The notes under the pieces are model-generated. The model had not been told where the DNA came from. It was given only the letters and a program-made list of their open reading frames with translations, and did not search any database. Shown piece by piece: positions 53,602-57,822 of a DNA stretch of 64,000 bases. A program made the translations under genes and the position numbers. The stretch lies in contig CAWFOE010000008.1 in assembly GCA_963817285.1 (NCBI GenBank), forward strand, positions 12,990 to 76,989. The letters run 5' to 3'. The stretch comes from an uncultured Pseudomonadota bacterium. GTDB lineage: Bacteria > Pseudomonadota > Gammaproteobacteria > Natronospirales > REEB76. Each line of letters starts with the position of its first letter. Position 1 is the first letter of the stretch.

Positions 53602-56205
53602 GTGAAGAAAGGCTTCTGGACCTCCGATTGGTTCGCGGGGCTGGCCTACGGACTGGTCTTTCTCCTAATCGCTTATGTCATCTTCGGGACTGGTTTCGGC
53701 CGCGCCGAGACTGCCGCGTATGACTTGGGCGTCAATTGGACGAGCGCTGTACCGGACAAGGACATCGTCGTCATCGCCATCGACGACGCTAGCATCAACA
53801 CCCTGGGCCGCTGGCCCTGGCCGCGCGACTATCACGCCGCTCTCTTCGACAAACTCAGCAAAGCCGGCGCGGATGCCATCGGCTTCACCGTGCTGCTCTC
53901 GGAAGCGCAGGTGGATCAAGGCAGCGTCTATATAAAAGACATGCAGGACTTCTACGACGGCTCGTCGTTGCAAGCCGCCGCACCTTTCACTCCCGCCGTC
54001 CCCGGCAGCACTGCGCCAGTGGTCGCCAAGGCACCGAGCATCAGCGTGCCAGCCGCGGTGCACGGTGACCTCTTGGAACTGCGTAAGCGTATCCAGGCCG
54101 CTTCTGAGACGCTGAACTCCGACGTGAAACTCTCCGCCGGCATGAAGGCTGCGGGCAACGTGGTCATCCCCATGCTCCTCACCGTGGGCGACCCCCTCGG
54201 CCGCCAGAGCCAGGCGACGCCCGACTACATCATGCGTAACGTGCTGGGTCCGGTGACGAACGCGCCGGATGACATACAGCCGTTGCCCACCACTACCATG
54301 ACCTTGCCGCTCGCGGATTACGCCAAGGTCGCCAATATCGGTTTCCTCAACGCGTTCCCGGATGCGGATGGAGAGCTGCGCAGTGAAGCCCTGGTGCTGC
54401 GCAACTACGACATGTATTACCCGTCGTTCTCCCTGGCTGTCGCCATGAAGTACCTCAACCTGGGGCCGGATGACGTGAAAGTGATGCCTGGTCAGGGTGT
54501 CAAGGTCGGCAAGCTGTTCATCAGCACTGACCCCAGCATGTTCATGCGCAACTTCTACTACAGCGGGCTGAATGGCGACGCGCCCTTCCCGGTGTACTCC
54601 TACGCCGACGTATATCTCGGCAAAGTACCGGCCGACAGCTTCAAGGGCAAGATCGTGATTGTGGGCGCCACGGCCCCCGGCATCACCAGCAGCTTCCCGA
54701 CGCCCACCTCGGCGTTGATGCAACCGGTGCTCGTCGAAGCCAACGTGATCTCCAGCATCCTGCAGCAGAACTTCTTCACGGCGCCCAGTTGGACGCATTA
54801 CGTGACGATCTTCATGCTGCTGGCCTTCATCGCCTATCTCGCCGTCGGTCTGCCGCGCCTCAAACCCAGTCACGCTGCCCTCATCAGCCTGGCGCTCGTG
54901 ATCGTGGCGCTGGTGATCGAGTTCGGTGTGATGAAGAGCCGCTTCGTGTGGATACCGCTGGTCATACCGGTGCTCTTGCTCATCACCGGCCACTTGGTGG
55001 TGACCATCATCCAGTCCGGCATGCTGAACAAGATGCTGGTGCGCAGCGAAGCCGACAGCGCCGAGAGCAACAAGATGCTGGGTCTCGCCTTCCAGGGCCA
55101 AGGTCAGCTCGACATGGCCTTCGAGAAGTTCCGCAAGTGCCCGATGGATGATTCCATCGCCGACCTGCTCTACAACCTGGCGCTGGACTACGAGCGCAAG
55201 CGGCAATTCAACAAGGCCGGCTCGGTCTATCACTACATCAACGAGTACAACCCGAAGTTCCGCGATGTGGCCGAGCGCATGAACCGCTCCAAGCAGATGG
55301 AAGGCACGGTGATCCTCGGTGGCGGCGGTGCGAGCGCCAGCGGCACCATGATCCTGGGCGACGGCACGGTGCAGAAACCGATGCTCGGCCGCTACCAGGT
55401 GGAGAAGGAACTGGGCAAGGGCGCCATGGGCGTGGTGTACCTCGGCCGCGATCCCAAGATCAATCGCGTGGTGGCCATCAAGACCATGGCCCTCTCGCAG
55501 GAGTTCGACGCCGACGAGCTGACCGAAGTCAAAGAGCGTTTCTTCCGCGAAGCCGAGACCGCGGGCCGCCTCAACCACCCGAACATCGTGACCATCTACG
55601 ACGCCGGCGAGGAGCATGACCTGGCCTACATCGCCATGGAGTTCCTCAAAGGCAAGGACCTGACCAGCCGCACCAAGGGCAACGCCCTCCTCACGGCCAA
55701 GACGGTGCTGGAGATCATCGCCAAGTCTGCTGATGCCCTGGATTACGCCCATACCCAGAACGTGGTGCACCGCGACATCAAGCCGGCCAACATCATGTAT
55801 GACGAGGAGAAAGGCGAGATCAAGGTCACCGACTTCGGCATCGCCCGGATCACCGATTCCAGCAAGACCAAGACCGGCATGGTCTTGGGAACGCCTTCCT
55901 ATATGTCCCCGGAACAGCTGTCCGGCAAGAAGGTGGACGGCCGTTCCGACCTGTTCTCCCTGGGTGTTACCATGTACCAGCTGCTCGCGGGGCAACTGCC
56001 CTTCCAGGCAGACTCCATGGCGACCTTGATGTTCAAGATCGCCAATGAGCAGCACCCTCAGGTGACCGTGATCAGGGGCGAGTTGCCCGAGGGCGTGGAC
56101 AAGATCCTGGACAAGGCATTGCAGAAAGATCCCGACCAGCGTTATCAGCGCGGTGCTGATTTCGCGAAAGATGTGCGTGCCTGCGCCGCGCATCTAGCCC
56201 AGTAA
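53602..56205 (+). CDS. CHASE2-domain membrane Hanks-type Ser/Thr kinase
   Basis: CHASE2 (VIAIDDAS..GRWPWPR; DADG..R; FKGKIVIVG), 3 TM helices, TPR-like segment, kinase motifs GKGAMG, AIK, HRDIKPAN, DFG, GTPSYMSPE. Confidence 0.93.
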   Translation: MKKGFWTSDWFAGLAYGLVFLLIAYVIFGTGFGRAETAAYDLGVNWTSAVPDKDIVVIAIDDASINTLGRWPWPRDYHAALFDKLSKAGADAIGFTVLLSEAQVDQGSVYIKDMQDFYDGSSLQAAAPFTPAVPGSTAPVVAKAPSISVPAAVHGDLLELRKRIQAASETLNSDVKLSAGMKAAGNVVIPMLLTVGDPLGRQSQATPDYIMRNVLGPVTNAPDDIQPLPTTTMTLPLADYAKVANIGFLNAFPDADGELRSEALVLRNYDMYYPSFSLAVAMKYLNLGPDDVKVMPGQGVKVGKLFISTDPSMFMRNFYYSGLNGDAPFPVYSYADVYLGKVPADSFKGKIVIVGATAPGITSSFPTPTSALMQPVLVEANVISSILQQNFFTAPSWTHYVTIFMLLAFIAYLAVGLPRLKPSHAALISLALVIVALVIEFGVMKSRFVWIPLVIPVLLLITGHLVVTIIQSGMLNKMLVRSEADSAESNKMLGLAFQGQGQLDMAFEKFRKCPMDDSIADLLYNLALDYERKRQFNKAGSVYHYINEYNPKFRDVAERMNRSKQMEGTVILGGGGASASGTMILGDGTVQKPMLGRYQVEKELGKGAMGVVYLGRDPKINRVVAIKTMALSQEFDADELTEVKERFFREAETAGRLNHPNIVTIYDAGEEHDLAYIAMEFLKGKDLTSRTKGNALLTAKTVLEIIAKSADALDYAHTQNVVHRDIKPANIMYDEEKGEIKVTDFGIARITDSSKTKTGMVLGTPSYMSPEQLSGKKVDGRSDLFSLGVTMYQLLAGQLPFQADSMATLMFKIANEQHPQVTVIRGELPEGVDKILDKALQKDPDQRYQRGADFAKDVRACAAHLAQ

Positions 56206-56221
56206 TAACAAAGGCTGCCGC

Positions 56222-57043
56222 ATGAGCTACAAAGGCAAGCTGAACTTCGTCGGCAACAGCGACAAGGGCATGGTGCGTCCGAATAACGAGGATTGCATCG
56301 GCACCGATCTCGAGACCGGCCTCGTGGTGGTCGCCGACGGCATGGGCGGCTACAAGGCCGGTGAAGTCGCGAGCGGCATCGCTGTGCAGACCCTGACGGA
56401 GTTCGTCACGAACGGCATCAAGGATGCGCACAAACACGCGGCCGGCGCCGAGAGCTACAGCGCCGAGAGCGTGCTGTTGCGCAACGCGATCCTCAAAGCC
56501 AACGACATCATCCACCAGACCGCCAAGAGCCAGCCCCAGTGTGAGGGCATGGGCACCACCATCGTGGCTTGCCTGTTCTATGACAACCGCATCTCGATCG
56601 CCCACGTGGGCGACTCCCGGCTCTACCGCATCCGCCACGGCCAGTTCGAGCAGGTGACCACCGATCATTCCCTGCTCCAGGAACTGGTGGCCCGGGGCTT
56701 CTATACCCCGGAAGAGGCCCGTAAGTCCCTCAACAAGAACCTAGTCACCCGGGCCTTGGGGATCGAGCCGACCGTGGAGGTGGACGTCCAGGAGGACGTG
56801 GTCCTGCAGGACGATATCTACCTGCTCTGCTCCGACGGCCTGAACGACATGGTCGAGGACGCGGATATTTACTTAACCCTTAAGACGTTTAGTGCTAACC
56901 TTGAGATGGCAGGCCAACAGCTGGTCAAGCTGGCCAACGACAATGGTGGCCGGGACAACGTATCGGTGGTCCTGGTGAAGCCGTTGAAATCGTTCGAGAA
57001 CCAGAAAGGGTTCTTTGACCGGCTGACGGACTGGTTCTCTTGA
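56222..57043 (+). CDS. PP2C-family Ser/Thr phosphatase (Stp1/IreP-like)
   Basis: RPNNED, VADGMGG, AHVGDSRLY, LCSDGL, GGRDN. Confidence 0.95.
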   Translation: MSYKGKLNFVGNSDKGMVRPNNEDCIGTDLETGLVVVADGMGGYKAGEVASGIAVQTLTEFVTNGIKDAHKHAAGAESYSAESVLLRNAILKANDIIHQTAKSQPQCEGMGTTIVACLFYDNRISIAHVGDSRLYRIRHGQFEQVTTDHSLLQELVARGFYTPEEARKSLNKNLVTRALGIEPTVEVDVQEDVVLQDDIYLLCSDGLNDMVEDADIYLTLKTFSANLEMAGQQLVKLANDNGGRDNVSVVLVKPLKSFENQKGFFDRLTDWFS

Positions 57044-57099
57044 GCCACGTATGGGGCACGTCGGGCTAAACGAGAAATGAATTACCAAGAGGCAGACCC

Positions 57100-57822
57100 A
57101 TGGGCAAGCTGATACTCACACTCGATGGCCAGGAACTGGCGCAATACGAACTCGAAAAAGAGCGCTATACCATCGGCCGCCTGGCTGATAACGATATCCA
57201 CATCGACAACATGGCGGTGAGCGGACACCACGCGCTCATCATCAACATCCTCAAGGACTCCTTCCTCGAGGACCTGAACAGCACCAACGGCACCTACGTC
57301 AACGGCAAGCTGATCAAGAAACACGCCCTCCAGGAAGGCGATGTGATCACCATCGGCCGCCATGCCCTCAAGTACATGAGCGGCAAACCCGCCGCAGCCG
57401 CCGGCGATGCCGACGACTTCGAGAAGACCATGATCATCCGGCCCGGCACCAAGAGCCAGACCGGGGTGCCCAGCATGGACAGCGTGAACAAGGCCATCTC
57501 CGATGCGGGCGGCGCCCCCATCGCCGATGGCGCCAAGGCCGCGGCGCTGCCGCGCGCCAAGCTGCAGGTGCTGTCCGGCAGCTTCGCGGGCAAGGAACTG
57601 GAACTCAACAAGGCCCTCACCACCCTGGGACGCCCGGGCGTGCAGGTGGCGGCCGTCACCCGTCGCGCCGACGGCTTCTTCGTAGTGCACGTGGAGAGTG
57701 GCCAGGGCCAGGGCTTCCCCACGGTCAACGGCGGCGACATCGGCGCCCAGGCGCTGAAGCTCAAGGACAACGACGTCATCGAGCTGGCCGGCGTGAAGAT
57801 GGGCTTCTACGAGATGAAGTAA
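57100..57822 (+). CDS. Tandem-FHA domain protein
   Basis: FHA1 with IGR, VSGHHA, DLNSTNGTYVNG; second FHA-like domain LGRPG..VNG..DVIELAG lacking SxxH. Confidence 0.9.
   Translation: MGKLILTLDGQELAQYELEKERYTIGRLADNDIHIDNMAVSGHHALIINILKDSFLEDLNSTNGTYVNGKLIKKHALQEGDVITIGRHALKYMSGKPAAAAGDADDFEKTMIIRPGTKSQTGVPSMDSVNKAISDAGGAPIADGAKAAALPRAKLQVLSGSFAGKELELNKALTTLGRPGVQVAAVTRRADGFFVVHVESGQGQGFPTVNGGDIGAQALKLKDNDVIELAGVKMGFYEMK

Follow-up and report, generated by a model that had tools for sequence, protein, structure and literature searches.

In Proteobacteria, triads of a Hanks-type Ser/Thr kinase, a PP2C phosphatase and an FHA protein are understood almost only as switches of the type VI secretion system (T6SS). 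What does such a triad regulate when the DNA around it carries no T6SS genes? The question is raised by a three-gene operon within a 64,000-nucleotide stretch of contig CAWFOE010000008.1 from an uncultured gammaproteobacterium ("the window" refers to the whole of that stretch), which encodes a membrane kinase with a CHASE2 sensor domain, a PP2C phosphatase and a double-FHA protein. A sequence-only reading of this DNA had called the triad self-contained and its output unknown. Neither description held when related loci were compared: the triad is not self-contained, because cyclic-nucleotide genes adjoin the triad in 60 of the 62 related loci with long enough flanks, and an orthologous phosphodiesterase is encoded 4 kb upstream of the operon in the window; the same neighbours point to an output. 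Most likely, the triad family couples an extracytoplasmic signal to a cyclic AMP (cAMP) circuit made up of a CHASE2 cyclase, a class-II-like phosphodiesterase and a rhodanese protein that binds cyclic nucleoside monophosphates (cNMP); and we think it probable, if far from assured, that the operon in the window is the phosphothreonine (pThr) branch of this conserved, here dispersed, circuit.

Cyclic-nucleotide genes beside the triad

We scanned for the kinase locus in one genome per species and obtained at least 592 loci; the neighbourhood counts use the best 80, drawn from Rhodocyclaceae, Burkholderiales, Gallionellaceae, Methylophilaceae, Nevskia, Moraxellaceae, Methylococcaceae, Ectothiorhodospiraceae and others; one of them, L071, belongs to an isolate record of Methyloversatilis. 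Kinase, PP2C and double-FHA genes stood in this order on one strand in 68 of the 80; nine of the remaining 12 end at a contig edge less than 900 bases from the kinase gene, and the other three, L072, L083 and L094, have space for an FHA gene but nothing there matched the FHA protein. The kinase-PP2C-FHA triad is a conserved unit. The double-FHA protein gave 458 cluster representatives (E≤1e-30) in a library of 1.84 billion proteins, and in a sample of 201 genomes spread evenly over the class 59 carried it (58 of the 198 high-quality ones); the TPR-like segment of the kinase was found in 39 of the 201, and 33 of these 39 also had the FHA protein. The class sample takes in two genomes flagged as unpublished (G077, G154), and the tallies for the window's order (41 genomes) take in one (G020); no conclusion here rests on any of the three. 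The family is large and common, belongs to soil and water bacteria, and is without a published description that we could find: a full-text literature search, with subscription journals largely uncovered, returned no account of the function of a CHASE2 Hanks kinase or of this cluster.

The flanking open reading frames (ORFs) of the best 80 loci were clustered and representatives were scanned against Pfam, and counts were based on the 62 loci whose sequence continues for 3.3 kb or more past the FHA gene. At least one of four kinds of cyclic-nucleotide gene lay within 7 kb of the triad in 60 of the 62, namely a CHASE2 cyclase (51 loci), a phosphodiesterase (46), a cNMP-binding rhodanese protein (25) and a GAF-HD-GYP protein (8); in the other two, L016 and L030, the upstream flank is short. 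The cyclase, about 745 aa long, is itself a CHASE2 protein, its second domain being a class III nucleotide cyclase; the phosphodiesterase (255 aa) has a metallo-beta-lactamase fold with the class-II cAMP-phosphodiesterase signature; and the third protein (360 aa) combines cNMP-binding domains with a rhodanese domain. Genes for these three proteins come after the FHA gene in most loci of Betaproteobacteria. The cyclase gene lay downstream in the same orientation in 48 loci, and in 5 it was convergent. The cNMP-rhodanese and GAF-HD-GYP genes lie upstream of the triad in L021, L034, L050 and L066, and GAF-HD-GYP lies downstream in L053, L060, L080 and L090. Within genome G046 the FHA protein stands alone beside GAF-HD-GYP and cNMP-rhodanese genes, with no kinase nearby.

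Phylogenetic profiling against cyclases, proposed in the sequence-only reading as a check, was run on the class sample. Type IV pili, another target proposed there, are near-universal in these groups. A cyclase orthologue (E≤1e-170) was found in 27 of the 201 class-sample genomes, and 19 of the 27 also had the FHA protein as compared with about 8 expected by chance, figures that describe a pattern and are not a test, the sampled genomes being related and the counts overstating their independence. The cyclase and FHA genes were less than 10 kb apart on one contig in 14 of the 19 genomes having both.

The messenger made by the cluster cyclase is predicted to be cAMP, from its solved relatives and from one residue of its catalytic domain. 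All 22 of the best solved relatives of that domain are named adenylate cyclase or CyaB. The lysine of its motif G-T-I-D-K-Y-M-G-D aligns with a glutamate of the Synechocystis guanylate cyclase Cya2 (2w01), at a position which we take to set purine specificity; an engineered adenylate-cyclase chimera of Cya2 (6fht) has lysine at the same position as the cluster cyclase. Lys557 and Thr631 were invariant in 43 cyclases, and such a Lys/Thr pair marks class IIIb adenylate cyclases.

The window's own lineage keeps the parts of the module, dispersed. Near the triad in the window, the only member of the cyclase, phosphodiesterase and cNMP-binding set is the phosphodiesterase, which is 47% identical over 255 aa (E 8e-90) to the one at L033:13423-14190, in a Propionivibrio cluster, and is orthologous to the enzyme encoded after the cyclase in betaproteobacterial clusters. 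Between it and the triad lie ccsA, a CNNM/CorC gene and radA, and the phosphodiesterase is likewise upstream of ccsA, CNNM/corC and radA in L017-L020 and L056. A 767-aa cyclase orthologue is encoded in G007, of the same genus; it is 46% identical to the betaproteobacterial protein from end to end, and the match takes in the C-terminal helical extension. The orthologue lies between clpS-clpA and a divergent gspC-D-E-F in 5 of 5 genomes from three genera (L104:7744-10047, which is G007:C14, and L119, L120, L121 and L122); this placement may be plain synteny, or it could be a hint of a link between cAMP and the type II secretion system. The cNMP-rhodanese orthologue (50-54% identity) was found in 4 of 5 genomes of the family and missed only in the window's own genome, G000, which is 69% complete. 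No GAF-HD-GYP orthologue was found in the genus (0 of 3 genomes, including G000), and the matches in the sister genus were only 30-31% identical. In the three genomes (87-89% complete) of one genus within the order, the FHA protein, the CHASE2 cyclase (searched there with a paralogous 640-aa cyclase as query), the cNMP-rhodanese protein and the phosphodiesterase were all missing; the four absences count as a single evolutionary event, though one that fits a functional unit.

The 640-aa CHASE2 cyclase used as that query is encoded in the window's genome (G000:C4). It was considered as the partner cyclase and rejected as the orthologue, being 29% identical to the cluster cyclase and without the C-terminal extension; its neighbour genes are unrelated. 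It is followed on the same strand by genes for a small SH3-domain protein and an M48 peptidase (L102:8225-11576, minus strand), possibly an operon of its own.

Kinase, phosphatase and double-FHA protein

The kinase carries a CHASE2 domain at aa 21-410 (Pfam PF05226, E 1.2e-53, 182.7 bits vs a cut-off of 26.3) and a Hanks kinase domain at aa 598-848 (PF00069, E 2.2e-58, 198.2 bits vs a gathering score of 31.7). In an alignment of 18 orthologues, 54-79% identical overall, the residues K627, H723-R724-D725, N730, D744-F745-G746, S769-P770-E771, D783 and R847 were invariant; the earlier claim that all catalytic motifs are present was correct, and the kinase looks catalytically active, of the RD type. 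Hydropathy scanning gave four hydrophobic segments, at about 10-32, 398-417, 424-444 and 449-471, where three transmembrane helices had been counted before. One segment before and three after CHASE2 place the N terminus and the kinase domain in the cytoplasm and CHASE2 outside; a periplasmic sensor, as first described, is retained in the predicted topology, with both termini inside.

A TPR-like segment, also described in that first account, follows the membrane part and is among the best-conserved parts of the kinase in the 18-sequence alignment; its assignment to TPR comes from position and from sub-threshold matches (TPR_2 22.6 bits vs a cut-off of 27; a DUF5834 match was also sub-threshold). 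Beyond it, in the linker to the kinase domain, all 18 aligned orthologues have Thr582, followed at +3 by Leu or Met. FHA domains classically prefer a hydrophobic residue at +3, and Thr582 is a candidate site of juxtamembrane phosphorylation at which an FHA domain could dock.

The best solved relative of the kinase was the kinase domain of M. tuberculosis PknB (E 3.3e-52), with PknA also close, and only residues 585-862 matched any solved structure. The Stk1/PknB model NF033483 scored 309.7 bits vs a cut-off of 450, the match being confined to the kinase domain (profile positions 5-269 of 563), and no PASTA repeats were found in the protein; by score and by repeats the kinase is not a member of the PknB/Stk1 PASTA kinases. 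Its full-length relatives, 50-96% identical and mostly from metagenome-assembled Gammaproteobacteria, are annotated only as CHASE2-containing Ser/Thr kinases.

Two further kinases were noted. The window's genome encodes a second CHASE2 Ser/Thr kinase of 814 aa (L103:7371-9815, plus strand; G000:C12), with a weaker CHASE2 match, a TPR-like segment 35% identical, and no PP2C or FHA neighbours; a paralogue similar to it is the only CHASE2 kinase in the genus lacking the FHA protein. The kinase orthologue found in another genus within the order is encoded by a frame of 477 aa (G026:C8:440716-441810), which matches only residues 481-862 and so has neither the CHASE2 sensor nor the membrane part; the phosphodiesterase and FHA genes are still in place on the same contig.

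The 273-aa phosphatase matched Pfam PP2C (E 1.3e-13) and PP2C_2, and is of the Stp1/IreP type (NCBIfam NF033484, 254.3 bits vs a cut-off of 230). The domain scores of the three proteins lie well outside what chance would give.

The third protein was predicted to fold as two beta-sandwich domains, residues 1-95 and about 150-240 (pLDDT >90), joined by a disordered linker (pLDDT about 50). The N-terminal domain is a canonical FHA domain (PF00498 at aa 23-86, E 1.1e-22, 80.6 bits vs 20.7); its pThr-binding residues G26, R27, S41, H44 and N63 were invariant in 59 members of the family, and the nearest solved sequences were the FHA domain of Rv1747, OdhI and GarA. Residues 131-240 matched no Pfam family even at E≤10. 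An AlphaFold model of residues 145-240 alone reached a pLDDT of 90.1, and a Foldseek search of this C-terminal fold against the PDB gave 14 matches at E≤0.001, with OdhI/GarA FHA domains first and query-normalised TM-scores of 0.72-0.78 over ranks 1-14. Profile comparison of the two domains by hhalign (probability 94.9%, E 4.4e-8) showed a 13-residue deletion in the C-terminal fold exactly at the position of the Ser-x-x-His loop, and the arginine of the Gly-Arg pair is lysine in most betaproteobacterial members. As modelled, the C-terminal domain is an FHA fold in structure and not a PF00498 member in sequence, and it has probably lost pThr binding; the "tandem FHA" of the sequence-only reading stands as two FHA folds and falls as two canonical FHA domains. 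Mean column identity in the C-terminal fold was 66%, which speaks for a strongly conserved surface of its own.

The linker holds a conserved motif with Thr110, present in 48 of the 59 family sequences, with I, L or M at +3 in 44. In the window Thr110 reads T-M-I-I and Thr582 of the kinase reads T-M-I-L; Thr110, with its hydrophobic +3 residue, is a candidate phospho-acceptor suited to the FHA domain. Models of named FHA families all scored below their cut-offs on this protein: TagH/Fha (TIGR03354) at 44.5 bits vs 120.25, OdhI (NF041660) at 47.9 vs 200 and FhaB at 65.7 vs 125.

A further FHA protein, about 430-470 aa long, is encoded in most relatives. The one in G007 is a VWA-FHA protein of 428 aa (L105:7395-8681, minus strand; G007:C4) with no kinase adjoining. 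It was considered as TagH and rejected, being a VWA-FHA protein of 428 aa that is present in genomes without the T6SS component TssC; a role as second reader for the kinase is possible. A VWA/kinase/FHA/PP2C operon is described for Deinococcus in a 2026 preprint (10.64898/2026.01.23.701218).

Proposed mechanism and rival readings

That the locus encodes a real writer, eraser and reader of pThr, as was first proposed from the sequence, we hold with high confidence, the catalytic and pThr-binding motifs all being present. A ligand at CHASE2 would switch the kinase on, and the kinase would autophosphorylate its activation loop and the juxtamembrane Thr582. The N-terminal FHA domain of the adaptor would dock on pThr582, and the kinase would phosphorylate linker Thr110 of the adaptor, which lies in nearly the same context (T-M-I-[IL]). 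Phosphorylated Thr110 could then compete for the FHA domain in the manner of GarA/OdhI, altering the state and the binding of the adaptor; the pThr-blind C-terminal FHA fold would relay this change to an effector within the cAMP module, and PP2C would reset the system. Which residues are phosphorylated, that the switch works as in GarA, and which protein is the effector are all inferred. Speaking for the switch are the invariant Thr582, the presence of Thr110 in most family members and a C-terminal fold nearest to OdhI/GarA; a GarA-like switch through Thr110 is nevertheless a tentative proposal. By analogy, the docking step at pThr582 has a precedent in B. subtilis PrkC, for which a bioRxiv preprint (10.1101/2025.11.01.686061) reports that signalling requires phosphorylation of a juxtamembrane disordered region.

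A stronger form of the scheme, which is possible and at present rather doubtful, has the phosphorylated, kinase-docked adaptor directly gating the CHASE2 adenylate cyclase or the phosphodiesterase through its second FHA fold. If so, a Hanks kinase would be wired straight to cAMP synthesis across much of the Beta- and Gammaproteobacteria, and two receptors of one sensor type would set the level of one messenger. If the inference from gene context is right, the family would join Thr phosphorylation and cAMP, which are usually treated apart in bacteria, and the poorly understood CHASE2 sensor would gain a second, assayable readout; the Thr582 and Thr110 motifs and the pThr-blind fold are concrete targets for mutation and binding tests.

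Parts of this arrangement have counterparts elsewhere. The M. tuberculosis PknB/PstP/FhaA-FhaB system has the same three kinds of protein in one operon, with a kinase domain nearest to ours and a Stp1/PstP-type phosphatase, and juxtamembrane and activation-loop threonines would be available as FHA docking sites in both; whereas PknB has C-terminal PASTA repeats in place of an N-terminal extracytoplasmic CHASE2 domain with four transmembrane segments, its operon adjoins cell-wall genes and not cyclic-nucleotide genes, and both the Stk1/PknB and FhaB models fall below cut-off here. Actinobacterial GarA and OdhI are small FHA regulators switched off by phosphorylation of their own tail. They resemble our reader in being a small FHA protein with a disordered segment carrying a conserved Thr, and both of its folds are nearest to them; however, their Thr is in an N-terminal tail and the candidate Thr here is in an inter-domain linker, a second, pThr-blind FHA fold is present here, the gene context offers no targets in the tricarboxylic acid cycle, and the OdhI model is below cut-off. 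GarA/OdhI is a plausible working model for the adaptor, the likeness being one of fold and of proposed principle only. Bdellovibrio DgcB, an FHA-GGDEF diguanylate cyclase, is a precedent for FHA control of the synthesis of a nucleotide second messenger, and its FHA domain (6hc1, 6hbz) was among the Foldseek matches of the C-terminal fold; DgcB has its FHA domain and cyclase in one chain and makes cyclic di-GMP, whereas here the reader is separate and the messenger predicted is cAMP. The S. meliloti CHASE2 adenylate cyclases CyaD1, CyaD2 and CyaK, which answer the plant protein uL2 via outer-membrane NsrA, are likewise CHASE2 receptors making cAMP; the accessible part of that report describes no kinase, PP2C or FHA partner for them (PMC13001267). 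Their readout is the CRP-type regulator Clr, where that of the triad family would be the cNMP-binding rhodanese protein. Cyanobacterial Ser/Thr kinases with CHASE2 N-terminal to the kinase domain, the same domain combination, were catalogued in a genome survey, the accessible part of which lists them without function, partner or gene context (PMC2176072).

Several points weigh against coupling of the triad to cAMP, the relatedness of the sampled genomes among them. The FHA protein was lacking in 8 of the 27 genomes with a cyclase orthologue, and 40 of the 59 genomes with the FHA protein had no cyclase orthologue at E≤1e-170; in the window no cyclase orthologue is adjacent, and in the window's incomplete genome none was found, the only CHASE2 cyclase there being the 640-aa paralogue at C4. 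The FHA family also pairs with kinases devoid of CHASE2 (535 aa in G117, and the 477-aa form in G026), Thr110 is missing in 11 of 59 family members, the reading of cyclase substrate specificity rests partly on general background on class III cyclases, and gene neighbourhood cannot tell direct regulation from two sensors sharing a stimulus. This last possibility is the main rival: the CHASE2 kinase and the CHASE2 cyclase would share a cue only, the FHA target would lie outside the cAMP module (in transcription, metabolism or the envelope), and the outputs would be independent. It has to be kept in view because co-occurrence is partial and CHASE2-less kinase partners exist; moreover the CHASE2 domains of kinase and cyclase are separate paralogues sharing about 27% identity, the window's lineage keeps the triad with no cyclase next to it, and the cytoplasmic part of the cyclase has no conserved linear Thr motif, its invariant threonines being in motifs of the catalytic domain. 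We consider it unlikely nonetheless, as the FHA protein of G046 lies beside cNMP-binding and GAF-HD-GYP genes with no kinase nearby, one genus lacks the FHA protein along with the cNMP parts, and the association recurs in several gene orders. Coupling of the triad to cAMP signalling is, on balance, what we would expect.

Control of T6SS, by a PpkA/PppA/Fha-like threonine-phosphorylation pathway encoded away from the T6SS cluster, is very improbable, and the triad is almost certainly not a T6SS regulator. Like P. aeruginosa PpkA/PppA/Fha1, it is a proteobacterial set of writer, eraser and FHA reader; unlike that system, its kinase has the opposite topology, as the sequence-only reading had argued, and its reader is a small double-FHA protein where Fha1/TagH is long. 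No T6SS families were found among the window ORFs scanned, in keeping with what that reading had reported, and TssC (PF05943), used as the T6SS marker, went undetected in the genome of the window, which is 69% complete. Profiling against T6SS, also among the checks proposed at the outset, gave no strict co-occurrence: TssC was present in 6 of 59 FHA-positive vs 31 of 142 FHA-negative genomes of the class sample (overlap counted by hand from two tables). Within the window's order, the FHA protein (E≤1e-30) was found in 35 and TssC in 15 of 41 genomes; 13 of the 35 FHA-positive genomes had TssC and 22 did not, including G011, G015 and G032, which are 99-100% complete. One TssC-positive genome is G007, whose FHA protein is 100% identical to that of the window, but its T6SS genes are on a different contig. 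A PknB-like controller of envelope, cell division or DNA maintenance has in its favour the adjoining genes alr (D-alanine supply), radA and dnaB, the closeness of the kinase domain to PknB and PknA, the Stp1-type phosphatase, and a radA...alr placement kept in the window's order, in two Nevskia metagenome-assembled genomes (MAGs) and in two 'Natronospirales' MAGs. Such a role is quite improbable because these neighbours are not conserved: radA adjoins the triad in 8 and alr in 5 of the best 80 loci, betaproteobacterial loci are placed elsewhere, and alr, radA and dnaB are transcribed opposite to the triad, whose kinase is without PASTA domains and scores below the Stk1/PknB cut-off. The radA-alr placement is a lineage trait, uninformative on function. 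We give slightly less credence still to regulation of a pilus- or secretion-type motor ATPase, conceivable in some Betaproteobacteria. In a Gallionellaceae MAG an 802-aa GAF-MshEN-T2SSE protein (PilB/GspE-like; L060:11610-14018, plus strand) follows the FHA gene and is itself followed by GAF-HD-GYP, and the cyclase orthologue is head to head with gspCDEF in all five order genomes examined; but this ATPase was seen in only 1 of the best 80 loci in the Pfam scans made, in which not all loci were scanned for it, and in five genomes of the family no match to the L060 ATPase covered its GAF part, the best matches starting at residue 205.

Operon layout and neighbouring genes

Coordinates of the operon, of the features within its products and of the flanking genes are collected in Table 1. 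The ORF list and the hairpin beyond the FHA gene confirm three plus-strand genes with a terminator, as first reported, and Pfam matches on the flanks confirm that the block lies between radA and alr, on the strand opposite to radA and dnaB-alr. This strong hairpin overlaps the stop codon of the convergent alr, and is probably a terminator shared by both directions.

Table 1. Features of the triad locus and its flanks (base positions are those of the window; aa, residues of the protein named)
Feature	Position	Strand	Remarks
Class-II-like cyclic-nucleotide phosphodiesterase	49021-49848	-	Lactamase_B_2, PDEase_II; likely start Met22, base 49785
radA	52110-53546	-	Pfam
Kinase gene	53602-56205	+	867 aa; GTG start after GGGGG run
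First transmembrane segment	kinase aa 10-32		
Transmembrane segments 2-4	kinase aa 398-471		
TPR-like juxtamembrane segment	kinase aa ~485-560		strongly conserved
Thr582 codon	55345-55347	+	linker between TPR-like segment and kinase domain; G-T-[LM]-x-[LM] motif
PP2C gene	56222-57043	+	273 aa; 16-base gap after kinase gene
FHA protein gene	57100-57822	+	240 aa; 56-base gap after PP2C gene
Canonical N-terminal FHA domain	57100-57384	+	aa 1-95; pLDDT 96-98
Conserved linker motif with Thr110	57412-57444	+	[DE]-[FYL]-[ED]-[KRQ]-T110-[MVI]-[VIL]-[ILM]-R-P
C-terminal degenerate FHA fold	57547-57819	+	aa ~150-240
Operon terminator hairpin	57846-57875	.	13 pairs then T run
alr	57873-58958	-	Pfam
dnaB	58955-60508	-	Pfam

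A promoter scan of 53300-58100 gave no sigma-70-like site and was uninformative. At least half of the operon's sampled words occurred in six DNA runs, which belong to three studies and bear the label soil metagenome or metagenome; one of the six yielded contigs identical to the operon, with zero differences, and may be the source sample. Contigs of 140-447 bases from RNA libraries (2 runs of one study) mapped to the kinase domain, PP2C and FHA genes with 6 to 37 mismatches each (identity roughly 88-96%). These were set aside as proof of transcription or co-transcription, their origin being relatives and not this strain; we make no claim for transcription, because the contigs come from relatives, are contigs and not reads, and could reflect DNA carry-over. 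The peak in RNA depth at 55684-55857 represents the conserved HRD region of kinases from many organisms.

Elsewhere in the window, a PutA-like proline dehydrogenase / aldehyde dehydrogenase is spread over three minus-strand ORFs at 11201-14398 (13601-14398, 12303-13604 and 11201-12349), which suggests frameshifts, a pseudogene or assembly errors. A DUF1800 protein is divided between two overlapping plus-strand ORFs at 33902-35429 (33902-34552 and 34521-35429), likely a frameshift, and its usual partner DUF1501 is next at 35443-36681. Another extracytoplasmic-sensor second-messenger enzyme, a CHASE-PAS-GGDEF-EAL protein of 976 aa, is encoded on the minus strand at 6792-9722.

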